NCBI GenBank assembly: GCA_010093705.1
Contig: MU006098.1
Coordinates: 758,666 to 822,665 of the forward strand
Length of the DNA stretch: 64,000 bases
From: Patellaria atrata CBS 101060
Taxonomy: Eukaryota
Direction: 5' to 3'
Below are positions 537 through 44,550 of the stretch, one piece after another. The notes under the pieces were generated by a model. That model was not told where the DNA came from. It saw only the letters and a program-made list of their open reading frames with translations, and made no database searches. The position numbers and the translations under genes were made by a program. Each line of letters opens with the position of its first letter. The first letter of the stretch is position 1.

Positions 537-3500
537 TCAATTCTTCCCTATCTTCGTACTAACCCACCCCTCCACAATCAACGCTGACAAGCCTACAAAC
601 GTCATCCCTCCCTCCAACAACCCCAAAAATGGTACATCAACACCGAATTCCCTCCATCCCCAACTCCTCAGCTCAGCCCCTATCATAGAGTCCAGCCCAT
701 ACGACACTAGACTCTTCTCGGGATCAACTTTGTCCGCGGGCAGCAAAACGAGCTTCGAGAACCGGGCCAGGAGGAGCGTGAGAATAGCTTGATTGAGGGA
801 AGCGGGGTCCGCATGATAGACATCCGTAAGGAGTTGTTGAGTCGATTGAGCAGAAGAAGATGTAGCAGCAGCGGCGGAGGGGTTAGTATTAGAGGCAATA
901 GACGGGTTGAGGGATGAAGCGCTAGTGAGATCCATATGAAGGACCAAGTTCCGAAGTCGATTATCCCTCAACCACAGACTCTTTCCCCCGGCCCTACTGA
1001 TCCTCGTCGCGTCCACCCCCGTCACCACATGACTCGCAGTCGCCTTGTCGTACGCCCATCTCGCATCCACGGCCCCCAGATTGCGTCGTCGACACGCGAG
1101 ATCCATGTAGCGAAGGTACTCCGAGACTCCGATCCCGTACATCCCGTTCCGCAACAGCGCTTTCTCGACCTCCGGATGCTCTTCCACGTGACCGGCGCCG
1201 AGTATCATTCCGAGCGCGATGCTGGTCGCTTGTAGGCCGAGCGCGTGGCGGTGTCGCGCCATGTGGTCGAGGAAGGCGTTGGCAGCGCAGTAGTTTGCTT
1301 GAGTTGCGGTGCCGATTGCGCCGATGACCGAAGATGCCATGACGAAAAAGTCGAGGTCTTGGTCTTTGAGCTGCTCGTGCAGGTTCAGTGTTCCGAATAG
1401 CTTGGGCGAGATGACGGAGGTGTAGGCCTCATGTGACATGTGGGTGAAGATGCTGTCTTTGACGACCATGGAGGCTTGGATGACGCCTTTGATGGGTGTT
1501 GGGGCCGCAGCGATGGCGCAGGCGATGTCCTCGCACGAAGTTACGGAACCGCGGATTACGGTTATGTTGAGAGTGGGGTATTTGAGGGTGCGAAGCTCGT
1601 CGAGCTCGGAAATCAGTGCAGACGCGACGGGTTTGGAGGAGCCAGTGCGGGAGAGGTAGATGAGGTTGCGGGCGCCGTGGGAGACCATCCAGGCTGTTAG
1701 GCTGCGTCCCAGACCTCCGAGACAGCCTATTAGAAGATAGGAAGCTTCGGGGTTGAATTCGATCGGTGCTGGAGGTGTATAGATGGGAACCATTGTTGTG
1801 GGATTGCTTGATACTACCACACGGCCGTGGTAATCAGGGTTTTCGGCGACTATAATTGCATCTTTCAGTTCTGATAAGTCAAATGATTTTGATGGAATTG
1901 AAATAGTGTGCCGCCTTATCAAGCCAACTGCTTCCACTAGATATTCTTCCAGCCGTGAACTTTCAGCAGAGAGAACATCGAGGATATTTACACAATTTAT
2001 GTTCACAGCTCTTGAGAAAAGCGAAGCGGGGAGAGAAGCGAACTCTGCTGGTAGCATTTCGGAGAGGATAATGACCTGGCCACCCCGACGAACCATGCTT
2101 GGTAAGTTTTGCTGGAGCACTGAAGACGGGTTCGTGATGATTATGTCGAAAGTCGATTTATCTAGGATCCCGGTTAATTGGATTTTCGAACGATCAATGA
2201 CCTCGGCGGATTTGATTCCTATCAACGCTTTGTTTTCATCTTCCGATGCACATGTTACCAATACCTCTACACCTAGGTTCACCGCTACTTGAGCTAATGC
2301 AATATTCAAGACGTCCCCTGAACAATCTATCATGACCTTGTCCCCAGAATGGACCCCCAGGAACTTGCGAAGAATGTACACAGCAGCAACAGTAGGATAT
2401 ATCTTATCGACCATCCCTCTTGGATCCTCTGAGTATCTTAAAGGTACACAAAGATCTTCGTGTATTGTGAACGATGTGTCGAGCTTGTTTGGACGGAGAC
2501 AGACGATATAATCGTTGATTCCTAATTTGGTGACGCTCGGACTGATACTCTTAACAACGCCGGCGGCTTCTAAACTAAAGAAGGGGTGACTCTTTTGGCC
2601 TTTCATTGTACCAGATAGCTAGAGGGAGACCATTAGATGTAGAGAGATACACAAGAAATTGATAGGGCTTACCGATTTATCAAATGCGAAGGCTGTGGAT
2701 TCAACAAGCACTTCATTCGCGCCGAGGGGACTCTTTTCGGATTCCTTGAAGTAAAAACTGTCAATCTGACCTACTTTTTTGAAATCCAGATGGAGACTGG
2801 GTTGTAGTGGTAGGATCTCTGGATTTATATAAGATGAACGCTCAAATTGGAGATTTTCTAGATCATCAGTGTGGTAGCGGCTGATATATACGATACCGTC
2901 TTTTTCGACCAGTTCAGTATCCAAATCAGAGTCCGGGTTCTCAAAAAACCTGATTTCATGTTCGATGATCAGCTTTGCCGAACGTTCAAGGTCCGGAATA
3001 GCGTGCTCAAGATCGAAACTAGAGACATGGAAGCTGGGCTGCTCAACCATTACTGATTTAGCAATCCCAAATATCAGTGCCTTCTCAGGATCTTCTCCTT
3101 GTAGGACACCGCCATTCGTTACCCAGACTGAGGTTGATGCAAGTTCCATGTATTCCTGGGTCGCTTTCATCTCATATTCATTCATCCGAGCTAGAAGAGC
3201 GGTTTCAAGTTCGACAAGCATAATAGTTCGTGCTCCTTTCGACGATAGTTTTGAGAACTCCAGCAAGGCCACTCTTTGGGTCTGAATGCTTCTTTCCTCG
3301 TAGAGTGTTTCTAGAATTGTGAGTAAACGGTGTGGGCTCTCTTTGTAGACCTATAATACACATCAGCATATCAAAATGAAGGCTGAAGGATTCAAGGCCT
3401 TACCAGCCAGACTACAGGTTGTTTGTATTTATTTCGTTCCTCTTTAGATTCCACTAATTCAATGGCGCTAGTTGCTGCCCCTGATTCAGCACGTCTTCGA

Positions 3501-6500
3501 GAGATCATCAATGTTGTGCAATCGTTTGGCTCCGGATAATCGTTCAAGACAATATCAGTACCCGTAAATCCAGCTTCAATCAATCGAGCATCCCAAGCAG
3601 CCTTTGAGATGAACGGGCTTTCTGGTCTTCCGTCATCAGCTCCAAGCCAGTATCCGGGTAATGTTCCAAGCAAGTAACCCGTTACCAGTCTATTTTTAGT
3701 TGTCTCGATTATCAGGAGTCGACCACCGGGTTTGAGAAGCTTGTTACAGTTCTCTAGGGTTTTGGTTATGTTTCGAGTTGCGTGGATTACGTTAGATGCA
3801 AAGACAATATCAAATGACTCTAGCTCAAAACCTTGATCCACTGGATCTTTTTCAATATCCAACAAACGAAAATCAAATCTAGGGCGATCTTTGAATGCTT
3901 CCGCAGCACCGGAGAGGAAAGCGGTCGAAACATCTGTAAACACATACTTCTCATACTTCGCCAGAACATCGTGAGCACCGAGACCTTTAAGCATAGGCCT
4001 TGTCGCGCCTCCAGTGCCTGCACCTAGCTCAAGAATGTTCAGACGAGGCTCTTTGTGAGAGATAAGTTCCATCGTTTTTTGAAGTTTCGCATAGGCGCCA
4101 ACCTGGCCGAATCCTTCGCCATAGATACGTGTGATTAGGTCTTCCTCGACCATCACATCTAGAGCCCCTGTCTCGCCAGTAACAATCTCTTTCATTCTAG
4201 AGTTGAGTTTCGCGACCATAGCAGCTTCGGGAACCTGTGACCCGATCTCCTGAACAATCCTGGATATACGATGGTCTCTTTCATGCGTAGAAAGGAATCC
4301 AGTACCACTGGTAGAGAGATCCTTCGCTTTGTCCTTGAGCCACGCTACGAAGTTTTGCATATAGCCAGGGAGATTTTCCACGTGAAGATCATCCGGGAGG
4401 ATTTGAGAACTGTTCAGAATGGCTAAAGCAGCTACTTCCTCGAGCTTAGAGAAGTAATAGCGCGATTCATCAGCACCTTCAGAGCGAAATAAGGAGATTG
4501 CATTACTGTTACTCAAATGGTCGAAATCCGGTTTCCAAACTAACCTCGAGTAGGGCTGTGGAGTTGTGTCGCTCATCGCGGTGCCAAGGTTCGTCTCGAG
4601 CGAAAAGAAATTTATAGCAGCTTCTAAAAATACGTCTCCATTGTTGTTGATCATCCGTGTGGACGTATGTATGCTTCTGAGGCCTCGGCGTTCTCCATGG
4701 CCAATGGCCGTGACGTTCTCGCAGTCTAGTGTAGTAACTGAAGGCGAAATTAAGAACTTCTCGATGTGAACAGGAAGATAAGGTTTCTTAATGGTATCCG
4801 GGTTGCCTTGATGAGCAGCGACGACGGCAAGTTGAAGACATCCATCGATTGCAGTTGGATGTATCACATAATTTGACTCTTGCATCATCAGACCCTGCGT
4901 AGCGCGAAATGAAATCCTAGCTGATGCATCGAGAGTTTCTGGATTGGACCGTACGTCTTGGAGTGTTGTAAATGCTGGACCATAAGAAAGGCCCACACGA
5001 GACATTGCTTCATACCACAGACGATCATTTGCATCCTGATTAATGCCCGACCGAGTACCTTTGTAGGCGGACATATCGGATGGTGGTCCTCGTGATGCTA
5101 CGTGGCTCACTGAGATGTGCCCAGTGGCGTGCTCGGTCCATTTTCCTGATGTCACAGAGCTTACATTGAACGTAAAATTGAAATCCGAGCCAGAAAAAGA
5201 TTTTAGATCAAAGAGTATTTCGGTCTGTGAGTCGTCGTGAAGGATTATGGCTGAACTGATTTTCATGGTTTCGATTCTGTAAGTAACAGGTTGTGGATGC
5301 ACCGTCTGTCTGGCTGCCTCTACAGCCATTGCGATATAACCTGCAGCTGGAAAAACAATGTCATCACCGACCTATCATATCATTAGTGGAATATGAATGC
5401 ATTCTTGAAATTTAGACTAACCTTATGATCGCGGAGCCATGGGACATCATCAAGATGTAATATGTTCCTCCAGGTAGGTGAGTTTCTAGATGTCCCTAGA
5501 ATCCTACTTCCAAGTAAATCATGCCTTGGACACTGACGAAACCGAAGTTCGGTACTGAGACGGCTTTCATGCCATAGTATGTCTTCGTATACCCACTGGT
5601 AGCTAGGGAGATCGACAACTACTCTACTGTTGCAAATCCCTGGAGCGATACTGTTGTCCTCCACTTCTCCTGAAGTGATACTAGCGATATTGAGATCGTA
5701 TCCAGAAACGAAAAGAGACCCGACGAGGTTAAGCATATTCTCCGCGCCATCTCCATCACGCTTTAAGGTCGAATGATAGACCAATCGCTCCGTAGCAAAG
5801 CCCAGTGATTCCTTGATGTCTTTCATAGAACTACTGAGTGCCGGGTGTGGTCCGATCTCTATTATGTGGTTGATATCTGGATGTGATTTGAGGAGTTCCT
5901 GTGCAGCTTGATCGAATAGAACCGGAGATTCGAGGTTTTGACGCCAATAACTATGTTCAATTCTCGATACCGTGATAAGGCTACCAGTCACAGAAGAATA
6001 CATTCTGACTTCACTGTTCTCGAGGGGGATAGTGTACTCCTCTAACGAAAGTGATTGCTGTAACAACTTGTCATAGTCCTCGCCGGCATCTTTCATCAAT
6101 GGAGAGTGATAGGCGTTACCTGACGTTGCCAACTTTCTGTTGAAGACGCCAGCTCTTGACAGCATACCGCGAGCTTTGTCGATAGCCTCGTCTGTCCCAC
6201 TGAGAGTTACACTTTGAGGGGAATTATGACATGCGATTGCAATGTCATCGATGTTCTCAATAAATGGATTGACGTGATCAGCACCGAGACCAACTGCAAG
6301 CATCGCACCTGGGACGTTTCGTCTGGAAGCTGATATACCCCTCTGGTACGCAATTATAATTGCAGTACTAGCGGAAAGATAACCAGTAGTATAGGCTGCA
6401 GCAATTTCACCTAAACTCTGTAATTAATATGTCTCCTTTTCGCTCAAAAAGGCATCTTCACGTACCGGAGGAATGACCCACTACCGCTTTCGGCATTATT

Positions 6501-9000
6501 CCCCATACTCGAAGGAGGTCTACTATCGCTATCTGGACTGCCGTACACAAAGGTTGCGACAGTTCACTATTATTTATTCTACTAATAGATTTAGGGGCCT
6601 GTAATACTTCCATAATTGTCCATGAAGGAGGGTGTGGGGTAGAAGCAAGTATTCCGTCTAAATACTGAAAAGTTTCTAGTACAGAAGGATATTGCTTCGC
6701 GAGCGAAAGTCCCATCTGCGGCCAATGTGCGCCTTGTCCCGTGAAAATGAACGCCAGAATCGGGTCGGTACCTTTGATAGAACCGGCCTTGAAACGACTT
6801 TGAAAATGCTGGGAAGAATTCGCAGATACCTCCTCCTCGGATATTACTGCAAATGCTCTATTTGAAAATCTACCTCGGCGAGAGCTCAAGGTATAAGCTA
6901 GATTAGACAAGGAATATTCATACAGAACTTCGGAAACAGCTTCTATATTCTTGCGTAATGTAGCTTCATTGTGAGATGAGAAAAGTAGTAAATGTTTTCG
7001 CTTCTGAGGATCCAAAGTAGAAGGACTAAGACGTTTTTCTGAATTTCCGCTTTCGTAATCACTTTTGTAGATAATGCCATCCAGGATGCCGTCCGTAGAA
7101 CCATCCTTCAATTCATCTTCTTGTTTGACTTGATCTACAAGATTCTCTTCTTTGAGATTGGTATTGGAAGACCTATTGCTAATGACTTTATTTATAACAT
7201 GAAAATTTTGACTGCTTTCATTTGAAAGTTCACTAAGATTTTTATAGCCGTTGAGGGAACCATTGCAATCCGTATTTTCAAAAGTAGCAGAATCATATAT
7301 AGATAACGAAAGCCCAGTGACGAGGGGTTGAATACGGAGCGAAGAGTGGCTAGCGAAGTAAGACTCTACAGCGTCGAGGACAGCATGGGCATTAGCTCCT
7401 CCATATCCAAAGGAGTTAATACTTGCTCGTCGATAGGTTGCCCATTCCGGCCAAGGGGAGAGCGCTTGGACGACTTTAAGACTGCCGTTGCAAAGGTTGA
7501 GAGCCGGATTGAGCTTCTTTATACCAATAGTTGCGGGTATTAACCCTTTTTCCAGGCAAAGGACTGTCTTTATGATAGCAGGGATAGCACTAGCTGCTTC
7601 TCCGTGTCCTAAATTGGTTTTTACAGAGCCAAGTAGGAGCGGTTCCTGAGCAGTTCTCTCTTTTGAAAATACACGGCCAATTGCCTCCACTTCGAGAGGA
7701 TCACCAACTGGAGTTCCCGTTCCATGACATTCAAAATAGGCTGTCCGCTCGATAGATAAGTTAGCATTAGCATACGCTTGACGAATACAGCTCTCCTGGT
7801 CATCTTTGCTAGGATGGCTTATGCCCAGACTCCGACCGTTTCTGCTCTCCTAGTAAGTAACTAACAGTTGAATCATTGCGAACGCACTTACGCATTTATC
7901 GCAGTTCCCCGAATTACCGCTCGGATAGGGTCGTTATTTGCTATTGCTGCTGATAAACGCTTGATGTAAAGAGCCCCAACCGCCTCACCGCGGGCATAAC
8001 TATCAGGCGGAAAGAGTTTAGTGTAAATTCATTGGCCAAGCTTCAAGCCCCTTTTCCAGATCCGAGACTCACCCGTCTGCTGACTCATCGAATGTATGGC
8101 AAATGCTTGTCGGTGACAGCACTCCTAACCGTACACTTCCAATTTGCTGTTCCACACCGAATATGAGATTTGTGCCTCCGACTATGGCTGCTTCACAGTC
8201 TCCCGCTTGCAAGCTCTTGCAAGCGAGATGGAGAGCGTACATTGTACTCGAACAAGCGGTATCGATGGTGAAACTAGCCGGAACATGTCAATCTTTCGGA
8301 ACTACTGTCTTCTGTTGTTCTTGCGTGGAAGCCGACGATGTCATATAATAGGAGTCTTAACTCACCTAGGACCTTTCAGATTGAAGACATAGGAAATGCG
8401 GTTACTCAATATGGTTATCCCTCCACCCTAGATCAGCACAGTTAGCTAATATTTTACACTATCAATCAATTAAAGGCTCCCACTGTCATATGATAGGCTG
8501 CTCCGTATTCAACATCTCTAGCTTGCATCTGACCAATGTCCCAGGTAAAGTTACCTATATAGCACGCTGTATTCGATCCGGATAAATCCTCAGGTCTCGC
8601 GCCAGCGGATTCGAAACTTTCGTAGACCGTTTCTAACAGCTTTCGCTGTTGTGGATCCATGCTGGTTGCCTCCAATGGACTTATTCCAAAAAATGAGGGA
8701 TCAAACCCTCGATATGAATCATCATCGCCGAGGAAGTATCCTCCATGAGTATGAATGCTACCCGGTCGATGGGAATCTGGATGGTACCAGGAGCTGACAT
8801 TAAACCTATTCTTAGGGACATCAGATTGAGAAGACTTCTCATTCTCAAGGAGAGTCCAAAGTTTTGAGGGTGATGAAGCATCCCCGGGAAGCCGACATCC
8901 TGCTATCATTAGTCTACACTTGAACGATTAGGCAAACTTTCTCACCCATGCCCACAATAACTATGGGGTCGTTATCCTCCATTGCAGAACCAGTCACCAT
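537..9000 (-). CDS. Highly reducing iterative type I polyketide synthase, KS-AT-DH-cMT-ER0(degenerate)-KR-ACP, about 9 introns
   Basis: Start [26 protein letters not shown] motifs DTACSS (~8247-8265), ECHGTGT and KTNLGH; AT GHSSG and [20 protein letters not shown] and [28 protein letters not shown] and YCAAN; ACP YGLDSM. ORF pieces are joined by GT-AG introns. Confidence 0.97.
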
Positions 9001-11740: not shown

Positions 11741-14055
11741 ATGTACGACCTTATAATCATCGGCGCAGGTATCTCCTCTCCGCATTACCCTCTCCAATAA
11801 CCCCTCCTTCACTTCCCCGCTCAACACCCCTCAATTTACTCTGAGCGCCAATTTTTCAAGTATTACTCTCCAAATACAAACATGGCCCTCGAAGCTCTCC
11901 TCACATGTAACGAGTCCAACAATCATGTTTCTTTTCATGATCATTACTCCCCTCTAACGTCTTGGTGACAAGCGTCTGTGAAATGTTACGTCCCAGATAC
12001 CACCCTTAAAGTATACCTGCTCCAAAATATTCATTCAATTGTTACTCCCCCGGAAGGATTAAAATTCACATGTGTCACTAGCCTAAAAACATTATGCTCC
12101 AGAATTATCACTTTTGAGAAGTGTTACTCTCTTACGAACACAATTTCCGCAAAACACTACATTCTTAAACATGATTTTCTCAAATGCCCCCCACTCCCGA
12201 GCCTTTCTCTTCTACTCAGAACCCAAAAACCCTTAATACGCAACTCCTTCTCCCTTCCCTCCACTAACTCTCGACAGGGCCCGCCGGTCTAATAACCGCA
12301 AAAACATATCTCCAGGCCTCTCCCACCGCCAGAGTCCTCCTTCTTGATTCTTCCAACACCCTCGGTGGTACGTGGTCACAAGACCGCCTGTATCCACATC
12401 TCCTCGCAGAGACCCGACATGGGCATTTCGAGTTCTCCGATCTCCGCATGGGGACCGAGGGTGTCAATTCCGACGGAACCGTGAGCGGGGATGCTATACA
12501 TGCGTACCTGGTGCGCTATGCGGAGAAGTTCAATCTTTTGAAAATTTTGAGAAACCAAACGAAGGTCATTCGGGTACAGAGGAAAGAAGGAGGAATGGGA
12601 TGGTATGTCGGGATCGTTCCAGTTAATGAGCAAGGGAAGGAATTAGGCGACGGCGAAGAAGTTCTCCGGGCGGAAAAACTCGTCGTCGCGACGGGAATGA
12701 CGTCGCACCCTTTTATCCCCTCAATCCCAGACTATGGGTTCCGGGGTCAGATAATCCATTCGAAAGAGATGGGCACAGAAACGACGAGGGAGCTACTGCG
12801 CAATGAGAAAATAAAAGCGGTAGTTGTGTACGGCGGCTCTAAATCTGCTTTCGACGCCGTGTACATGCTACTCAAAGCCGGCAAAGGAGTCGAGTGGGTT
12901 ATAAGACACGGAAACGGGACTGCGAATATGACACCCCTCACAATATGGGGGATGCCGACATCTCGTGCCTCTGCCACGCGCATCTGGGGTCTATTCTCCC
13001 CCTCTATCTTCGCAGAGGATAGTTGGTGGAAGCGATGGCTACAATCCAACCTCGTCATAAAGGGATACTGGAGATTCATGACTTACATGGTACAAAGGCC
13101 TGCACAGTACTGGAAAACGGAGAATGGTAGACGGCTAAGACCTGATATGGGATACGACAATTTGTTTTATAGTCCTGCGACCCAGGGGGTCTCAAATCAT
13201 CCCGAGTTCTGGGATATGGTACACAATGAAGAGAATGTCAAAGTGTGGAGAAATAGCATCCTTTCCTACGAAGAAAACAGTGTCATACTAGACAATGGCA
13301 CACAGCTCCCAGCGGAGCTAGTTGTCCTAGCAACCGGCTGGAAAGTCAAACAGAATTTATTCTCCGATCAAGATGCTCAGGCTTTAGGGTTACCTTCAGA
13401 AGCTCGGTTCGACGCGGAGACACGATCCAAATGGAGCAAGCTGAACGGAGACGCAGAAAAAGAGATTCTGCTTGAATATCCATCTCTGAGAGACTCACCA
13501 ACTGGAACCCTAAGTAGAGAAGAGAATGATTATTGTTTATATAGGTATCTCATCCCCTCTTCCTATCTAAACGACGATAGATCGATCGGCTTCATCGGAT
13601 TCTTACGTACAGCATCAAATCCAATGGTGTATGAAGCGCAAGCGTTATGGCTTACGGCGTACCTACTAGGGGTGCTAAATGTACCTTCTCAAGAAAAGAG
13701 AGAACGTGAAGTCGCCCGCTCAAACGCTTGGATGTGGCGACGTTACATGTCGGGCCGAAGAATGCCTTTTGCATTCTTCGATTTTATATCCGTAAGTCGG
13801 TCTTCCGAACCGTTGTCAATGCCAACGTTCCTGACTGGTGAATTTTAGTACGTAGATCTACTCTACAGAGACTTAGGCATCAATACCCGGAGAAAGAGTA
13901 ATATTTTAGCAGAATTATTCGGCCAGTACCAGCCGAGGGACTATCAAGGTGTAGTCGATGAGTGGTTACAGAAAACTCGGAAGGTGGAAAGAGTTCAAAT
14001 GCACAGCAACAAAGCGGGCAATGATCCCATAACCACATTAACAAGATGTACATAG
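11741..14055 (+). CDS. Class B flavin-containing monooxygenase (FMO-like)
   Basis: Exon 1 (11741-11768) MYDLIIIGA spliced over intron 11769-12277 to GPAGLITAK gives GxGxxG. FMO fingerprint FRGQIIHSKEM, second dinucleotide motif GGSKSA, LATGW. Last intron 13792-13848; stop at 14055. Confidence 0.92.
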
Positions 14056-14811
14056 GTCCTTCAAGGGTGGAGTGAGGTGTGGTGCGTATAACAATATAGT
14101 CCCAGACATATGGTGTCGTTCAAAGCTAGGTTGTTCGCGAATAGGAGTGAGAGTAAAGCGGAGCTAACCGAATGTGGAAGTAAATGCAGAAGCGCTCTAT
14201 ATGCGCTGTGTAACTTCAACAATATTGTAAAAAGATGCGTCTGGACTGAACTTTTGGAATTTGCCAGAGTGGCAGTGTGACCATCGTACGTCGTGGTCAT
14301 CAGGATCATGCACATAGATTGGGGGACCTTGGAGAGTCGGGTAGCATTCACGAGGGGAGAATTTCTCCTACGGGACAGAATGTTGCGTCATAAGGGAATC
14401 AGTTCATACTACTACGATAGAAAAATGTCGTCGCTGTTGAAACTGAGGCTCATGGAGAAGTTGCTGGTAGTCAACAGCTTAATCTCAAGAAGCGTTTACT
14501 CTAGATAGTTGACGAACTGATAAACACTTTTTGCTTACTGTACTCTCGTGACACAGATTGAAGTTTACCATCAGTTTGAAGCACCGATTGTCTTTCCACT
14601 TTCTGTTCTGTTCAGTTTGCTGTTCAGTTCAGCTGTGCTTCCATCTATCCGCTTCCTCGACCACTCCGCCCTCAAATTGCCCTACTGTTACCCCATAGAC
14701 CTCTTAATTGAATCGTGCAAAGGTGCTGCGTGATATCACAGTCCGAACTATCTCAGGTCATACCAGTCTATATTCAGTAATACAATATCAATTCAACATT
14801 GTGCATCTCCA

Positions 14812-15858
14812 ATGAAGGCCATTGTATCAACCGAGCCAAACACCGCCTCCCTCATCAACAACCGTCCACTCCCTCGCCTCAGAGACGACTACATCCTCGT
14901 GAAAGTCAAAGCCGTCGCGCTAAACCCTACAGACTGGAAACACATCGATCTAACCACAACATCAGGAATCCTCTACGGCTGCGACTACGCCGGCGTGGTA
15001 GAAGATATCGGAACAGGAATGACAAAGGACTTCCGCAAAGGCGACCGAGTATTCGGCTTCGTGCACGGCGGAAACAGCGCCGAGCCAGAAGATGGCGCCT
15101 TTGCGGAATACATCGTGGCGAAAGGAGATCTGCAGATGCGTATTCCAGACGGCATGAGTTTCGAAGAAGCGGCGGCATTTAGAGTCAGAGTCACGAGTGT
15201 AAGCCAGGGATTATATCAAACGTTGGGGTTACCTCTCCCGGATGATGGAAGGAGGACTACGGAGTCAGAGATACCGATTCTGGTTTATGGGGGGTCCACC
15301 GCTTCGGGGATTCTAGGGATCCAGTTCGCACGATTATCTGGATATGCACCGATTGTCACTTGTTCTCCGCATAATTTCGAGTTGGTTAAAGAGTATGGCG
15401 CTGTGGCAACCTTTGACTATGGAGACGATGACGCCGCTGAAGAAATACGGGAGTATACTAATGGGAAACTAAAGCTTATTTGGGATACCGTCTCTATATC
15501 TTGGAGCGCTGAGTTTTGCGCCAGTGTTATGTCCCCGGAAGGGGGGAAGTACGCCTCTCTCTTGCCCATGCGAATAAGCGCGGAGAATGTGGAGAGTACA
15601 ACGACGATGGCGTATACAGTATTTGGCGAGGACTGGAAGATGGGTTCGATGTTCTTCCCAGCGAAGAAGGAGAATTTCGAGTTTGGGAAAACGTGGTTTG
15701 CTTTGGTAGAGGATTTGATTAGCAAAGGAAGGATCGGACCGCATCGAATTGGCGTAGGGGAAAAAGGACTGGAGGGGGTGTTAGATGGGCTGCAACTGCT
15801 TAGAGATTCGAAGGTCAGCGGAAAGAAATTGGTTTATAGGATTGAGGACACTCCGTAA
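14812..15858 (+). CDS. Trans-acting enoyl reductase (LovC-like MDR family)
   Basis: Intronless 348 aa with [44 protein letters not shown] and VSGKKLVY, typical of PKS-partner trans-ERs. Confidence 0.93.
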
Positions 15859-19029: not shown

Positions 19030-19833
19030 ATGTCTACACGCAAGAGAAAGCAGGACGCTGAGGAGGAGCTCGTGGCTCTTCCTTCTGATGAAAGCGACGA
19101 GGAGGAAGAGTAGGTTCATTTCAGCTTTTGACGTCACTTATCATATCCCGTTCGTCTTACAACGTCGCGAAAACACTTCAATTGCTGTCGCACAGGTGCA
19201 TACAGACTCCACCTGTGTGAATTGCTCTCTTATAGTTCAGAGGCCTTTGTAGTGAGCTTCAAGCTTGCTTTAGCTTTCTGTCTGTTGATCAGATCCAGCG
19301 GAAGACGGTACCGAATAGCTTGCCCATTTAAGGTCTACTCCAGTCGTCTTCGGTTTTCTTCTTTTCTCTTCGCGAGATTTTGAAACTGAAATCGGGAGAA
19401 GTGGTTCAATCCCAACTCGTAACTGATCACCTCTCTTAGGTACGATGAGTCGGAAGGCTCTGAAGCCTCGTACGACGATGAAGAGGACGAGTCTGAAGAA
19501 GAGGCGGAAGCTCCCCCTCGTATGTCCTTATCCACTCCACTCTACTCACGATTATTACATCCTTGCGCTTGTACGCCTTCTTACACTCACCTTTGTACAG
19601 CTCCCCAGGCCAAGAAGCGCAAAACCGAGCCTCAGCCAGAAGAGGAAGACGAAGATGAAGAAGAGCCTGAAGTTCTCTCCGACGAGGAGGCAGAAGGTGA
19701 GGATGACGATGTAGAGGAAGATGCTCCTGCCGATACTGTAAAGAAGAGTGCTCCCGCTGCTACTGCTGCAAAGAGCGCAACTTCCAAGACTGCTCTTAAG
19801 GAAGCAGAGGTCAGCGAGGACGATGACGATTAG
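19030..19833 (+). CDS. Small highly acidic protein with basic NLS-like motifs, function unknown
   Basis: Three exons (19030-19109, 19440-19519, 19601-19833) splice in frame: MSTRKRKQ...E/D-rich...AKKRKTE...EDDDD. Canonical GT-AG introns. Confidence 0.8.
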
Positions 19834-30685: not shown

Positions 30686-32719
30686 ACGACTTATTTCCGC
30701 CACGCATGCGTTTCTAGGATATCTCCTTCGTATTAAAGACGGAAAGAAGCATAAAGAGCGTGTTCGCCTGTTTAGCGTCGCTAGATGTCTGTATCACTTT
30801 CATACTAATTCTCTGTACTATATTTCATCATCGAAAAACTAGGAGTCAATGGTATGATTACGGACCGAGCGAACATGTACCAGTATTTGGACGGAGTTCT
30901 CTGCTGAGCGGGAGGACGTGAAGAATCTCTCGAGATTGCGTTTATTTAAGTAGTGATGTTTAATACATGATGACAGATCTTTTTCTTGAATCGAACTTCG
31001 AAATAACACCTGCAACCTAACTGGAATCGCGTATTGAATATGGACGGGGCTATTCCCCTGATTGATGGTGACTTACTCATTCGGCACATCACGTGTAGCT
31101 CTAAAATTAACCTACCGTAATTTAAATTCTTCCTTTTTCCATCTCGCGACGCAAATTCCCACATTTCAAAATTCCCCCCCAAACACTTGAAAGACACTTG
31201 AAAGTTGAAGAAAAACGAAAAAGAAGAATAAAAATTCCATCGGCAACGTTGCGACTCAGAAACCCATGTTCTAGACCCCGGTGGCTCTCAGCCCTTAACG
31301 GTCTGACCCGCTTGCCCCTGAGCAAAAGCGAACACGCTTTTCCTAGGTCTGCTCTTTTGGGATGCTCAGCTGCGCCCATAAAGATAATGGAGTTTGCAGT
31401 TCGAGTCTTCGATAAGGAGTAGAAATGCAGTGTATGCTGATAAAATGGACTACAAATGAGGCTAATTCTAAGTTTACTGGACGGTACAATTGCGATCCAG
31501 ACAGAGAAACTACTTGGAGATTGGAGGAATTGTTCAAGATTTGAGAGTTCTGCACGAACTTGAGGTTCTGAGATGCTTGGGATGTGTTTAAAATCGGGTT
31601 ACGGTGAGTGTGATTTGTTACCAGTTTGGGACAGAAGCTCATGCATCGTGTTTTTGACAGGAGCTTATCTGCTTATGCTGTCTATTATATAAGCTTTAAG
31701 GATGAATATTGACGCAGTTTCAGAGACCAACAAGCGAGAATTGTGATTCCGAGTCAGCAAGCTTTAGTGCTCTGCTGATTCAAACACACATGGCACTATC
31801 ACAAGTAATGGAGCACTTGTGAAGTTTCATGAACGAGGTGAACCAAATTCTGATGTCCAAATAGCTGGATTCTCCACGATCTAGCCACGAGGCTCCCTCC
31901 TACTTGGAATCATGTTCGGGAGCTTATGGTTATCCCGGACCCTCTAAACGACAATCTTGCACGAGAACGTCCTAAGAGCATGTCGAACTCAACCGGCATC
32001 AAAGGTGAATGTGTGCATAGCGCCCGTTGCGCGAATCCCTCGATCCGATATAGGGTTCTTCAGAGGGTTGTGCACAGTGCACTTCTCTTTTCGGAAAGAC
32101 AAGTCCCAAAGCGGTAGTCCGGGCGCGAAAAGCCACATCAAAACAGTTGTTCGGTGCGATTCGGCTCGTCACGCTTTGTCTCAAGCTCCCAGCTCGTGCT
32201 TGTTTCAAATCTTTTCGGCTTTGAGTTTCTCGTCTTCTGATGCTTACCCTTCATGGCGTAATAGGTGCTCTTTGATAGGCAGCTTCGATAGAGAGGCTGT
32301 CTAATAAGGGGGGCATGATTGGTCAGTTCTTCTTTTGTTGCTCTACCGTATCTTAGCGCTTCGACACAAGAGCATTACTGAGGAAAATGTTGTCAAGGTC
32401 AGTACCGTAAGTCAGGTACCGAAGTACCACTATCTCCTCGATTTCAGTCTTCCATATCAATGAACGCACAGCATAGGGGTGAAGAAGGGGGATAGATATA
32501 TGGACACCTTCCCATCCTTGCTATCTAATTCCTCTCCCCTTCGCATTTTACTATCTCTTACTTTCTCTTCCTCTTCCCGGTATCTCGAGCATAGTTTTGC
32601 TCATCCACTCATTAGAAGGATATTGTCGATTGTACAATATCATACTGGCATAGTTCCAGTTCTTACACTCGTTCATTTCATTTTTACAATAATATCCATA
32701 CACCCTAATATATTTCACC

Positions 32720-33907
32720 ATGAAGTTCACCACCATCTCTTTACTTCTCCCTTCCCTCCTCCACTCCGCAGCAGCATGGCCACATATGTCCTCCGACTCC
32801 ACCCTCTCCCACATTCACCATAAACACCACCACGCCGACTTCCTCTCCGAGCTGAGCAAGCGAATCGCATCCCCCGAACCCCAACCCCAAAGCGGTAACG
32901 ACGGCGACGACAGTCCCGGGCCCCTAATTGGCGACCTCGTCAACGGCGCAACTACCCCCGTCGGCCGCTCCGTCACGAACATCCTCCAGGGGACTGAGTC
33001 CGCCGAATCCCACGAAGCAGGATACCGCCCGGCCCCCTTCATGAGCCGGGCCTGCCGCAAGGACACCTGCTGCATCTGGTCGCACATCTCGCGCGCCTTA
33101 ACCGCGTCATTCACGGGCCGCGGAGGCCGATGCAACAAATGGGCGCGTGCCGCCATCCGTCTCGGCTTCCACGACGCAGGGACATGGTCAAAGAGTCTCG
33201 CATCAAGGGGCCAGGACTTCGGAGGCGCAGACGGATCCATTGTCCTCAGTGGACAGGAAAAGGGGAGGCCGGAGAACAAAGGCCTCGAGGAGATCATCGA
33301 GATGGCGCGGCGCTGGCAGCGGATCTATGGGGTAGGCATGGGGGATCTGATACAATTTGCCGCCATCCACGCCGTGGTTACCTGTCCGCTCGGTCCACGA
33401 ATCCGCTTTTTCGCCGGTCGGAAAGATAGCTCGCGGCCCGCGCCCGATGGGCTGCTACCCGGTGTCTTCGCCTCGGCTGACAGTCTCATCAACCTGTTTG
33501 AAGATAAGACGATCAGTCCGCACGAGCTGGCCGCGTTATTAGGCGCACATAGCACGTCCAAGCAGTTCTTCATCGATCCACGGAAGAGCGGGGCCCCGCA
33601 GGATAGCACTCCCGGGGTGTGGGACACGCTGTTTTACAACCAGACCACCGCGGGAAAGACGCCGAGCCAGGTATTCAAGTTTCAGAGCGATGTGGTACTC
33701 GCCCAGGATCCGAGGATCAAGAGCGAGTGGGAGAGCTTTGCGGGCCAGGGGGGCCAGGAGCATTGGAATGAGGATTATGCGAGGGCATATACGAGACTCA
33801 GTCTCTTGGGGGTGAATAATATTAATGGCCTTACGGAGTGCTCGAAGGTGTTGCCGGCGGCGAAGAGGGGGTTTAGAGCGGGGCCGATGGATTTATTTGA
33901 TGATTGA
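32720..33907 (+). CDS. Secreted class II-like heme peroxidase
   Basis: Signal peptide, distal AIRLGFHDAG, GGADGSI, CPLGPRI, proximal ALLGAHS, DSTPGVWD. Intronless, 395 aa. Confidence 0.9.
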   Translation: MKFTTISLLLPSLLHSAAAWPHMSSDSTLSHIHHKHHHADFLSELSKRIASPEPQPQSGNDGDDSPGPLIGDLVNGATTPVGRSVTNILQGTESAESHEAGYRPAPFMSRACRKDTCCIWSHISRALTASFTGRGGRCNKWARAAIRLGFHDAGTWSKSLASRGQDFGGADGSIVLSGQEKGRPENKGLEEIIEMARRWQRIYGVGMGDLIQFAAIHAVVTCPLGPRIRFFAGRKDSSRPAPDGLLPGVFASADSLINLFEDKTISPHELAALLGAHSTSKQFFIDPRKSGAPQDSTPGVWDTLFYNQTTAGKTPSQVFKFQSDVVLAQDPRIKSEWESFAGQGGQEHWNEDYARAYTRLSLLGVNNINGLTECSKVLPAAKRGFRAGPMDLFDD

Positions 33908-40900: not shown

Positions 40901-43900
40901 CTAAGGAATCCCCACGCCGCCAGCAGTGACCGTCACAGTCAGAGCGTCTGAGCACGGCGTGTTCGCCGAAGTTGACGGCCTGCTTGTTATCGTGCTTGTA
41001 ATGAAAGTTGAAGTTACCGTGGTAGCTTGAATGTCTGATTAGTTGAGATACATAGGATAAGGATTGAAAGCGGAGTAAAGTCCGCAAGGGTGCACTCACA
41101 GGTAGGGATTGGAGTCGATGTCACTGTCGTCATAGTGGCTAGATTTACATATTAGTAAAGCTCGTTTAAGAGGAATAGGCCAAAGAGCAGTCAAGTCCTC
41201 CCATAAGAAAGACTGGACAGGATTTCCCACGTTATAACGTGGCCCATCACTGTACGCTCGCTTTCAAAGTGTCCCCCGACTCTCCTGCATACGACTGTCA
41301 ATAACGTATAGCTGCGGCCTAGTCATACATACGTCTTGACTGTACAGACATTTGGAGGCCATCCGCGATCAGGAGCTAAGAATCTGCGAACAACCGTCCA
41401 ACAAGCGTATAGTGGCTGGGGCGTTGCTAACAGCAATAAAGGGGTATCAAAAGTTTACTCACTAGTTGGGAAAGGAGTTGAAGTAACTGTGGTCGTAGTA
41501 GCTAAGTTTATGCATTAGCTTGCTCTCTAGGGGACTAATTTTCTAGTCGGCTATCGGTCTGAGTAATGAAAGATACTTACTTGTTGGGATAGGAGTAGAG
41601 GTGATTGTAGTAGTAGTGGCTAGGTTCACGCATTAGCCTCTTCTCCCCAGCATAGATAACATAAAGCGAGTGTATCTTTCGTGAGAAACAAAGTCCACAA
41701 GGATTCACGTACTGGTAGGAATAGGAGTTGAGGTAATGGTACTTGTGGAATAGATAACCGAAGTGCTGCTGGAGTTTGAACTCGAGCCAAAGCCTGAACC
41801 TGTATCTGATGTTGAACTGAAGGCAGAGGTTGAACTCGAAGCTGCTGCTGAGCTCGAAGTGGAGCTTGACGAGGAACTGGTCACGGAGGTCACTGTCGTG
41901 GAGTGTGTACGCTCGGACAAGGGAACAGCGATTGTTTGTGTGATCGTAACAGCCCCTAAAGAAAATTGTTAGTGATTTGGAAAGAGGAGAAGCATGTCTC
42001 GAGATTTGAGATCATACCGACTACAGTTACTGTAGCTGGCGGTGGAGTTTGGGTTACGGCGGGTCCGGGAACGGTCTGGGTGACAGCCCCTCCGGGTACG
42101 GTTAAAGTGACGGAGCCGCCGGGTACAGTGATGGTGGCAGCTGCTGGAGTTTGGGTTATAGCCGGTCCTGGGATTGTTATGGTGACAGAGCCGGCCGGAA
42201 TTGTCACGGTAGCCGCCGCGGGGGTCTGGGTCACGGCGGGTCCCGGGACAGTAACAGTAATGGAACCGGCAGGAATGGTAAGGGTAGCGGCTGCCAGCGT
42301 TTGGGTCACAACCGGCCCGGGAACTGTCTGGGTGACTGGGAAAGTCTGGGTTACGGGTTGACCCGGTACGGTCACAGTAATAGAGCCGCCGGCAAGAGTT
42401 TGGGTGATAGGTTGACCAGGAACAGTTTGAGTTATGGGTTGACCTATTGAGAGGTTGGCAAGGCGTTAGGACAAGCTTATTGGCACAAAATTCTCACCTT
42501 GAACTGTCTGTGTTTCAGCTTGCCCAGGAATTGTGACAGTAACATAGATAATTTGCGGGCCGGCCCCAGAGGTGCTAGAATAAGTAGAAGTAACCGTTGT
42601 CGAAGCTAACGCGGGATTAGTCTAAGGGTTTAGATGGTAGCTCGGGACAAAACTTACTAGTTGTAGCTGGAGAGAGAAGATCATATTAGCGACATTTTCA
42701 TAGGAAGGGTATGAAAAGTCTTAAGCGAGAATGTACTCACTCGTAGCAGGATAGGTTGTAGTTTTTGCTGTTTGAGCTCCATTAGAATTACATTGTTAAA
42801 GATGATATCAGGAAAACTTGCTGGTTGTTGTCGACGCGTAGGTCGTCGCTAGTTAGAATTAGCTTAGACCCAGAGTCTCATTCTCCAATAGCAAACTTAC
42901 TTGTGGTGGTTGGAACATAATTTGTGGCTATAGAAGTCTGATTAGCTTCGTTCTTGGTTGAAGAACTCTCGGAATGCCTTACTAGTGGTTGTAGGCGCAT
43001 ATGCTGTCGCTAAGAGGAAATTAGTCAGGCGTCATCTCCCCTATTCTGGTAGAGAACTTGCTCGTAATGGTTGGAACATAAGTCGTTGCTATAAAAACTT
43101 CATTAGAGTCATTTTTCGTGAAAGAGCTCTCAAGTAAACTTACTTGTCGTTGTGAGGATAAATGTTGTCGCTAAATAGAAGTTAGCCTATATTTCATCCT
43201 TGCTTCTCTGATGAGGAACTTACTCGTAGTTGTTGGGACATAACTCGTGGCTATTATGGTTGATTAGTTCTGTTTCTAGATTAGGAAGGGACAAACTTAC
43301 TGGTTGTTGTAGGGATAAATGTTGTCGCTGAGTAGAAATTAGCATAGATTTTTGACTCTCATTCTTCTACAGGGAACTTGCTCGTAGCGGTTGTATTGTA
43401 CGTGGTCGCTTCAAGCAAGAAGTCAGCCTTATCCTTTATTCAGGGAATTGAGAGGGACAAACTTGTAGCTATCGGAGAAGTCAGCGAATTTGATCCACCA
43501 AGTGTAATCGTGTAGACGCATGCTGAAAACAAGGGGAGAAGACAGCAATTAGTTTCTATTTTATGGGACGCGTGCTCATCTTGGACTCTACTCACTCGTC
43601 TGAGGATCCGGTGAAAGTCCAGTTGCTAATTCTAGATTTAGCACTCATTACCAAAAACAAGGTTGAAGTAGGACCAACTCGTCGTAGCTAGAATAAATGT
43701 CAACATACCAACACTTCCGTAATTCATACTAAATGTACTAACTTGTTATAGGGTCTGCAGCAGTTGCTTATCCTAAATTTAGCACACATTCTTGAGCAGG
43801 AGTCAAGTAGAACAAACTTGTTGTGGTAGTCGTCGTTGCTTTAGAAGTAGATCAGCTTTCAAATCAGGTGGGATCTATCATAGAAGGAGCCTCACAAGTT

Positions 43901-44550
43901 GTGGTTGTCGGAATTGCCGTAGCTGGATTTCGAAAGTCAGTCTACTTATGTACATCCAAGATTCAAGATCAACGAACTTGTGATTGTCGTAGATGTCGTA
44001 GTTGTTGCTGATATATTCCATTAGTACGTTATATTAATCTACGATGAAGGTTGTCTTCATCATGATGAAGAGGTTAAAAGATGAAAGACCTACTCGTAAA
44101 ACTTGGAATAGCAGCAACCTTGATAAATTTCATCAGGGAGTTGTTGATAGCGTAAGAGCTGGCTGACGTCGGAAACGCCGACTTTTGCTGGCAATTCATC
44201 GCACCAGGTGCGTTTCCGATCTGCCCACCTGCGCACTGGGAACCGCGAAGTGTGCAGTTGCCCGCACACTGTTCGAAATTGAGGCCGGGAAGATCTTGTA
44301 GAGTGCTGTGGCCCGTGATGTTATAACATTCCATATAGTATATCCCTCCCTGGGGTGGTGAGTAGTATTGGCCAGTGAATCCGGGACATGATTGTTGAGT
44401 CGTGACCTGTCTTTTTGCGAGGCTCAACAAGTGATTGTATCGTGCAACCTCTTGATGATATGGTGCTGCAGATACAACCCCGGCACAAAAGAGATACGCA
44501 AGTAAAGTTGGAAGCCAAAACTTCCACAGTGGACTTCGGGCGCCAATCAT
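40901..44550 (-). CDS. Secreted mucin-like protein (~642 aa): signal peptide, Kex2 KR site, six-Cys PAN/apple-like domain, micro-exon-encoded Thr-rich stalk; 25 exons
   Basis: Exons: 44550-44094, 44007-43978, 43922-43896, 43838-43818, 43766-43743, 43687-43679, 43625-43596, 43522-43463, 43408-43382, 43327-43301, 43250-43224, 43170-43144, 43088-43062, 43009-42983, 42927-42901, 42848-42822, 42767-42741, 42666-42658, 42605-42498, 42443-42018, 41955-41713, 41619-41581, 41501-41463, 41138-41100, 41025-40901. Junctions have GT/GC donors and YAG/AAG acceptors, mostly with a CTRAY-like branch site; the spliced frame stays open to TAG at 40901. Confidence 0.85.
42018..42443 (-). repeat. Coding tandem repeat (~24 aa, TVTVPGPAVTQTPAAATVTIPAGS-like) inside one exon
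   Basis: Visible in the translation of ORF 41956..42375. Confidence 0.8.
42741..43408 (-). repeat. Tandem array of nine 27-nt exon plus ~52-nt intron units
   Basis: Exons encode TTTYNTTAT, TTTFIPTTT, TTSYVPTTT, TTTFILTTT, TTTYVPTIT, TTAYAPTTT, TTNYVPTTT, TTTYASTTT and TKTTTYPAT; period 77-82 nt. Confidence 0.85.

Follow-up and report, generated by a model that had tools for sequence, protein, structure and literature searches.

Introduction

Tandem exon duplication arrays encode repeat proteins whose units are single exons, as in animal collagen-type genes. The yeast glycosylphosphatidylinositol (GPI) adhesins Als, Flo and Epa are encoded by intron-less genes whose length varies through the number of repeats within the exon. 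Introns are sparse in filamentous ascomycetes, and fungi seldom skip exons. The micro-exon genes (MEGs) of schistosomes are described as encoding a signal peptide in every case, as generating variants by alternative splicing, and as being restricted to platyhelminths (PMC4350168); their exons are given as 3-81 bp long and their introns as up to 5 kb (PMC10526429). In the basidiomycete Coprinopsis, about 9% of genes are reported to carry a microexon of 15 nt or less, in an account that calls microexons "barely studied in fungi" (PMC12230235), and a 2024 paper presents its one Trichoderma case as the first description of functional microexons in a filamentous fungus (PMC11121469). Among the open-access papers that we searched, none reports a micro-exon array in a fungal secreted-protein gene. 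Here we describe such an array in a 64,000-nt stretch of the genome of the filamentous ascomycete Patellaria atrata CBS 101060 (GenBank assembly GCA_010093705.1, contig MU006098.1, positions 758,666 to 822,665 of the forward strand). This whole 64-kb stretch is called the window below, and positions are counted from its first letter. Our reading, which we consider probable, is that the locus is a real and intact 25-exon gene for a secreted, PAN-headed mucin, with a stalk built from exon-intron cassettes and with mainly constitutive splicing.

The preliminary description of this DNA had likened the gene to schistosome MEGs, and with respect to layout the comparison stands. As in the published accounts of MEGs, a first exon encoding the signal peptide is followed by short symmetric exons that can be dropped in frame (PMC4350168, PMC10526429), and the product described here is predicted to be secreted, its N-terminus reading as a signal peptide. 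Membership in the family does not stand. The coding region of MEGs consists mostly of micro-exons, whereas exons of 60 nt or less hold 29.5% of the coding sequence (CDS) here; MEG introns reach 5 kb, whereas those of the present gene measure 50-93 nt, with one of 324 nt; and MEGs are platyhelminth-restricted, whereas the host here is an ascomycete and there is no sequence relationship. Alternative splicing is the functional hallmark of MEGs, whereas the present gene is known from DNA alone. At most, the gene works like a MEG; it is not a member of the family.

With tandem exon duplication arrays the locus shares adjacent paralogous exons of equal length and equal phase that were copied together with their introns, although the host is a filamentous ascomycete rather than an animal and the units comprise 9-13 codons. 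With the yeast adhesins it shares an N-terminal binding domain on a Thr-rich stalk, beta-branched residues, and repeats within an exon (exon 20), but it has no clear GPI signal and no homology to them. Wsc1 (PMC9024836) and Sclerotinia Ss-Sl2 (PMC3338822), as described, also combine a signal peptide, a Cys-rich PAN-type head and a Ser/Thr-rich stretch. Unlike Wsc1, the product described here has no visible transmembrane segment or cytoplasmic tail, and unlike the Wsc-type and PAN fungal surface proteins it matches neither the Pfam WSC model nor the PAN models and takes its stalk from micro-exons. The nearest relatives of its head are 26-29% identical, and none closer was found among the representatives searched. 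The layout is very unusual for filamentous ascomycetes: it is of known kinds (tandem exon duplication and a MEG-like layout) in an unexpected lineage.

Results and discussion

A 25-exon gene with all introns in one phase

The gene lies on the minus strand (44550..40901), with its ATG at 44550 and a TAG stop codon at 40903..40901. Scripted placement of exon boundaries starting from that ATG gave 25 exons and 24 introns, matching exactly the structure given in the preliminary description, and the phase pattern claimed there was recovered as well, with 24 of 24 introns in phase 1 and all 23 internal exons multiples of 3 in length. The CDS of 1929 nt, which is uninterrupted across the 25 exons, yields a 642-aa product. 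Ten exons are 27 nt long (E9-E17 and E3), and 20 of the 25 measure 60 nt or less, together contributing 570 of the 1929 coding nt (29.5%). Any skip creates, at the new junction, a codon composed of A, T or G followed by CN, GT or GG, none of which is a stop. We regard the gene model as very likely to be largely right. An automatic model that maximised CDS length was discarded; it produced a nonsense structure of 20 exons in mixed phases.

The exons and the sole long intron are listed below in the direction of transcription. Boundaries come from the exon model; the contents of exon 1 come also from homology searches, Cys201 from the cysteine positions, the assignments of exons 9-16 and 22-24 from paralog comparison, the descriptions of exons 20 and 21 from translation, and intron 23 from the survey of splice signals.

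44094..44550, minus strand: exon 1, 457 nt; contains the start codon and encodes the predicted signal peptide, the Lys-Arg propeptide, the six-Cys PAN-like module and the onset of the Thr-rich sequence
43978..44007, minus strand: exon 2, 30 nt
43896..43922, minus strand: exon 3, 27 nt
43818..43838, minus strand: exon 4, 21 nt
43743..43766, minus strand: exon 5, 24 nt
43679..43687, minus strand: exon 6, 9 nt, Thr-Thr-Thr
43596..43625, minus strand: exon 7, 30 nt
43463..43522, minus strand: exon 8, 60 nt, carries Cys201
43382..43408, minus strand: exon 9, 27 nt, odd type, upstream of a GC-AG intron
43301..43327, minus strand: exon 10, 27 nt, even type
43224..43250, minus strand: exon 11, 27 nt, odd type
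43144..43170, minus strand: exon 12, 27 nt, even type
43062..43088, minus strand: exon 13, 27 nt, odd type, upstream of a GC-AG intron
42983..43009, minus strand: exon 14, 27 nt, even type
42901..42927, minus strand: exon 15, 27 nt, odd type
42822..42848, minus strand: exon 16, 27 nt, even type, upstream of a GC-AG intron
42741..42767, minus strand: exon 17, 27 nt
42658..42666, minus strand: exon 18, 9 nt, Thr-Thr-Thr
42498..42605, minus strand: exon 19, 108 nt
42018..42443, minus strand: exon 20, 426 nt, with intra-exon repeats of about 25 aa (PGPAVTQTPAAATVTIPAGSVTITV-like)
41713..41955, minus strand: exon 21, 243 nt; a Ser-rich segment with a 3' end (…STITSTPIPT) that shares homology with the 39-nt exons
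41581..41619, minus strand: exon 22, 39 nt, TTTTTITSTPIPT
41463..41501, minus strand: exon 23, 39 nt, TTTTTVTSTPFPT
41139..41462, minus strand: intron 23, 324 nt, the sole long intron
41100..41138, minus strand: exon 24, 39 nt, TTMTTVTSTPIPT
40901..41025, minus strand: exon 25, 125 nt including the TAG stop at 40901-40903; carries Cys626 and lacks a long hydrophobic C-terminal tail

The introns have typically fungal splice signals. Of the 24 donors, 21 are GT and three (I9, I13 and I16) are GCAAGT; acceptors are TAG (14), CAG (6) or AAG (4). In 22 introns a YTRAY branch motif occurs 10-40 nt before the 3' end, and I4 and I6 have CTAAA in its place. Intron length is 50-93 nt in 23 cases and 324 nt in I23. 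Retention of any of the 24 introns introduces an in-frame stop or a frameshift, which leaves the model without a longer, unspliced frame as a competitor.

For a chain test, a segment of 48-95 nt counted as intron-like if it showed a donor pattern, a branch motif and AG, and consecutive segments had to be spaced by stop-free exons of 9-60 nt whose lengths are multiples of 3. The longest chain on the real minus strand consists of 18 consecutive segments. The longest chain on the opposite strand has 2, the other ~60 kb of the window (both strands) yields chains of at most 3, and in 200 dinucleotide-preserving shuffles the longest chain averaged 1.77 and never exceeded 4. The micro-exon array is thus far beyond chance.

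The three GC-AG introns (43328-43381, 43010-43061 and 42768-42821, minus strand) make up 12.5% of the introns of this one gene; the share of GC-AG among fungal introns is roughly 1%, far below that figure. They follow exons of both cassette types described below, and the GC donors may represent independent, tolerated T-to-C changes.

The micro-exons carry the mark of coding constraint

Paralogous exons in the array can be compared with one another codon by codon. We compared three sets (E9/11/13/15, E10/12/14/16 and E22/23/24), which together provide 15 pairs. In the predicted frame, the paralogs differ at 79 of 147 third positions but at only 25 and 24 of 147 first and second positions, respectively (54% versus 16-17%). 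This threefold excess at third positions bears the signature of translation in the predicted frame and of purifying selection.

Tandem duplication of exon-intron cassettes

Among E9-E17, two 27-nt types alternate, one represented by E9/11/13/15 (TTSYVPTTT-like) and the other by E10/12/14/16 (TTTFIPTTT-like). Exon identity is 0.67-0.85 inside a type and 0.52-0.67 between types, the exceptions being E9 (0.59-0.67 to its own type) and the pair E12/E16 (0.56). A second series, of three 39-nt exons with the pattern TTTTT[IV]TSTP[IF]PT, continues on both flanks, into the last part of exon 21 and the first part of exon 25. The introns of the array are related as well. Whole-intron identity inside a type is 0.57-0.71, versus a shuffle mean of 0.54 (sd 0.06), and identity over the last 24 nt reaches 0.83 for I4-I6, 0.79 for I9-I11, 0.75 for I21-I22 and 0.67 for I12-I14, compared with a maximum of 0.62 in 3000 comparisons of shuffled 3' ends that lose the shared branch motif; 13 of the 276 intron pairs lie at or above the 99th percentile of the shuffles.

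Neighbouring exons of equal length and phase are therefore paralogous and their introns homologous. Because homologous introns lie two steps apart and paralogous exon types alternate, the pattern points to tandem duplication of cassettes, and the proposal that the array grew by tandem duplication of exon-intron units is well supported by these sequence comparisons. On this account the stalk DNA grew through old, repeated tandem copying of cassettes, each comprising one or two short exons plus the accompanying introns, after which the introns diverged and the exons changed length by whole codons. Since only symmetric (phase 1-1) cassettes keep the frame when they are copied, the uniform phase and the exon lengths in multiples of 3 are a by-product of this process, and symmetry by itself is no sign of selection for exon skipping. 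Tandem Repeats Finder recognised no array in the gene and returned only a 21-nt stretch of 9-nt units. Exon 20 contains ordinary repeats of ~25 aa within one exon, alongside the cassette array in the same gene. Cassette duplication can thus build fungal repeat proteins, beside the usual expansion of repeats within exons.

Many extra introns, some of them mutually similar, are also reported for the introner-like elements of Dothideomycetes (PMC4457414); unlike those described there, the similar introns here sit close together within a single gene and were duplicated along with its exons. The data give no indication of introner-like elements, there being no intron copies elsewhere in the 64-kb window: blastn-short searches with the 24 introns gave only 11-17-nt matches outside the gene.

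The first 47 nt of intron 23 resemble a complete short intron and are followed by a string like the start of a 39-nt exon, so the intron may hold a decayed cassette. Fold prediction for intron 23 gave nothing out of the ordinary (z -0.92), and an Rfam search that included this intron gave no match at E up to 1.

A predicted secreted protein with a PAN-like head and a Thr-rich stalk

The signal peptide, Lys-Arg site, six-Cys module and Thr/Ser/Pro stalk named in the preliminary description are all visible in the translation and its composition. Residues 1-28, as read from the translation, comprise a basic n-region, a hydrophobic core and the sequence VSA|A. The features of the N-terminal part, which is encoded by exon 1, are as follows.

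44467..44550, minus strand: predicted signal peptide, residues 1-28, read from the translation
44410..44415, minus strand: Lys-Arg, residues 46-47, in the context LAKR|Q, a candidate Kex2-type processing site, read from the translation
44191..44388, minus strand: six-Cys module (C55, C75, C95, C99, C106 and C120), PAN/apple-like, from the cysteine positions and alignment to P0001

The Lys-Arg pair fits the rule for Kex2-type sites. Thr-rich sequence starts inside exon 1 and runs on through the array; residues 153-642 are 37% Thr, 12% Ser and 10% Pro. From this architecture, the product would be a secreted or wall-associated mucin-type glycoprotein, with a short propeptide ending at the Kex2-type Lys-Arg, then one divergent PAN/apple-like six-Cys binding module, and then a Thr/Ser/Pro-rich stalk of ~490 residues that would have an extended form and dense O-mannosylation. 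A role in adhesion or in a matrix would fit this architecture, from which alone it is inferred. Two further cysteines, Cys201 (exon 8) and Cys626 (near the C-terminus), fall outside the six-Cys module and could form a long-range or intermolecular disulfide.

The preliminary description had guessed that the cysteine module belongs to the PAN/apple group, and the relatives of exon 1 bear this out. A phmmer search of the exon 1 product against 1.84 billion representatives returned only three matches (E 2.1e-6, 4.0e-4 and 8.9e-4), which are 26-29% identical to it, and all three contain Pfam PAN_1/PAN_4 domains. In a BLASTP alignment, all six cysteines align to residues 174-242 of P0001, overlapping the PAN_4 match of that protein at 196-245. 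The Atlas neighbours of exon 1 include clusters named "Apple domain-containing protein" from Ascomycota (0.88), which we treat as a lead only. A profile comparison of the six-Cys region with the PAN families, suggested earlier as a check, gave no match to the Pfam models, and a sequence search of the PDB remained at chance level (best E 0.53 and 1.2). We consider a PAN-like head moderately supported by these sequence comparisons.

Pfam contains no family for the products of exons 1, 20 and 21. The exon 20 product has no matches among the longer proteins, and its Atlas scores are at most 0.77. On the plus strand, a 133-aa frame with GVWVTAGPGTV repeats lies antisense to exon 20 (41960-42361); it was rejected as a gene, being the mirror of the repetitive sense frame.

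Probable constitutive splicing and its alternatives

Under the reading that we favour, the short introns would be removed one by one through intron definition, giving mainly one full-length mRNA, and occasional in-frame skipping would do no harm. Such a scheme is consistent with a published survey of fungal alternative splicing, in which intron retention accounts for 61% of events and skipped exons for 3%, and in which intron definition is proposed (PMC3925392).

Several observations weigh against this reading. Eight of the 24 donors are weak relative to the fungal consensus (five with T at +3 and three GC), and weak donors could accompany regulated or inefficient splicing. The stretch was found in only two public sequencing runs, from one sample in one study, and in no RNA run; each of the two contains a single unspliced contig that spans it. 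Both contigs show no differences from it and no joints, and they are probably source DNA. No ortholog or paralog was found among the representatives, in the window, in metagenomes or among longer proteins, so the junctions cannot be checked through cross-species conservation. With respect to the head, Pfam PAN_1 (PF00024) and PAN_4 (PF14295) gave no match to exon 1 (E<=1) or to residues 48-152 (E<=10), and the AlphaFold2 models have a mean pLDDT of 35.4 (single sequence) and 41.2 (four-row alignment), both of them unusable. With respect to a surface location, no transmembrane segment is evident, there being no hydrophobic helix in the translation past the signal peptide, and the last 16 residues (the ALTVTVTAGGVGIP region) are weakly hydrophobic, so that a GPI-type hydrophobic C-terminus is not evident in the translation; no downstream exon encoding a hydrophobic GPI tail was seen. 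Two of the statistics are also more favourable than they should be: the contrast between the intron 3' ends and their shuffles is somewhat inflated by the loss of the branch motif, and the nominal p of 6e-15 for the codon-position bias is overstated, the pairs not being independent.

The likeliest of the alternatives, which the preliminary description had proposed, is splicing in the manner of MEGs, with the micro-exons acting as cassette exons that are kept or left out in many different combinations and the secreted isoforms having stalks of varying length and O-glycosylation. Each of the 23 internal exons is symmetric and the skip junctions lack stops, so every subset of exons stays in frame; weak or GC donors occur in 8 of the 24 introns; a signal-peptide exon followed by micro-exons fits the layout described for MEGs (PMC4350168); and one regulated micro-exon, in Xlr2 of Trichoderma, is reported from a filamentous fungus (PMC11121469). 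The symmetry, however, is already accounted for by cassette duplication, intron definition is the presumed mode of recognition for fungal introns of 50-90 nt and skipped exons make up only 3% of alternative-splicing events (PMC3925392), and the protein-level constraint on the paralogous micro-exons is what would be expected of exons that are normally included. Combinatorial skipping finds no support in the present sequence evidence, is unlikely a priori in fungi, and is judged unlikely here. In its fullest form, the locus would be a fungal counterpart of MEGs, with skipping of up to 23 exons producing an array of PAN-headed mucin isoforms from one gene, which we find rather improbable. If it were true, stalk length, O-glycan load and the content of beta-aggregation-prone segments would vary among the isoforms, their mix would perhaps be tuned by growth stage or substrate, and the gene would be the first combinatorial exon-cassette system in fungi.

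The introns might also have been kept for a reason at the level of DNA, either by interrupting, as diverged sequence, a repetitive tract of Thr codons and thereby stabilising it against slippage, or by serving as recombination points at which cassettes are gained or lost, with stalk length varying between strains as a result. The clearly cassette-built array, the repeats within exon 20 (which place both modes of expansion in one gene) and the possible decayed cassette in intron 23 are all compatible with this idea. The cassettes, however, are old and diverged, to the point that Tandem Repeats Finder sees no array and intron identity is near the shuffle level, and with such divergence recent unequal crossing-over is not evident. 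We consider this explanation quite improbable.

Least tenable, and in our view very improbable, is that the model does not function as drawn, the locus being silent or decaying or consisting of two genes (a PAN-like one of exon 1 only and a Thr-rich one downstream): exon 1 alone would give 158 aa up to the first in-frame stop, no database protein contains exon 1 (either as this 158-aa product or within longer proteins), and its Atlas neighbours include small secreted proteins of 149-197 aa (a lead only), but the frame is unbroken through 25 exons, the signals are canonical in 24 of 24 introns, the intron chain is far longer than chance allows, the third-position bias points to purifying selection on the micro-exons in frame, and the Thr-rich sequence is continuous from exon 1, with no in-frame ATG seen at the starts of later exons.

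Mainly constitutive splicing of one intact gene thus remains the reading that we prefer. The locus offers a concrete place for asking whether fungi use combinatorial exon skipping and, even if its splicing is constitutive, a useful trial for annotation attuned to micro-exons and for work on how introns are gained and retained. Its interest would climb if cDNA showed skipped isoforms or if a genome scan revealed a class of such genes.

Relatives, annotation and genomic setting

The preliminary description had also suggested a search for paralogs. A tblastn comparison of the spliced product with the window revealed none, giving only low-complexity matches outside the gene (best E 1e-4, at 19626-19739). 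A metagenome scan with exon 1 produced 98 pattern matches, with no relatives among them. No protein containing exon 1 was present among the representatives or as the 158-aa product of its open reading frame (ORF), and a word-based, weak search among proteins of 267-2000 aa also found none. The database does contain a protein, P0004, that is 100% identical to a peroxidase encoded on the same contig. The gene therefore seems to be absent from the database gene calls of the source genome. The earlier remark that a gene of this kind is easily missed by annotation is consistent with this pattern, in which proteins containing exon 1 are lacking while the neighbour P0004 is present. Such genes can drop out of predicted proteomes.

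The other genes of the window have few introns and long exons, which makes 24 introns in 3.65 kb exceptional here. The peroxidase, a class II haem peroxidase, is encoded at 32693-33907 on the plus strand, and its best named relatives (60-68% identity) are from Lophiotrema, Glonium, Pleomassaria, Delitschia and Lindgomyces, all Dothideomycetes, which makes the host probably a member of that class. P0004 is 317 aa long, compared with ~330-430 aa in most of these relatives, and covers 78% of the stop-to-stop frame; its model may be truncated at the N-terminus. Farther away, 537-7849 on the minus strand encodes a polyketide synthase of the highly reducing kind, whose KS, AT, DH, C-methyltransferase and KR domains were read in uninterrupted ORFs of 693, 659 and 463 aa. 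The synthase is adjoined by a flavin monooxygenase and a zinc alcohol dehydrogenase (12268-13848 and 14734-15858, both plus strand), and the polyketide synthase, monooxygenase and dehydrogenase together probably form a secondary-metabolite cluster.

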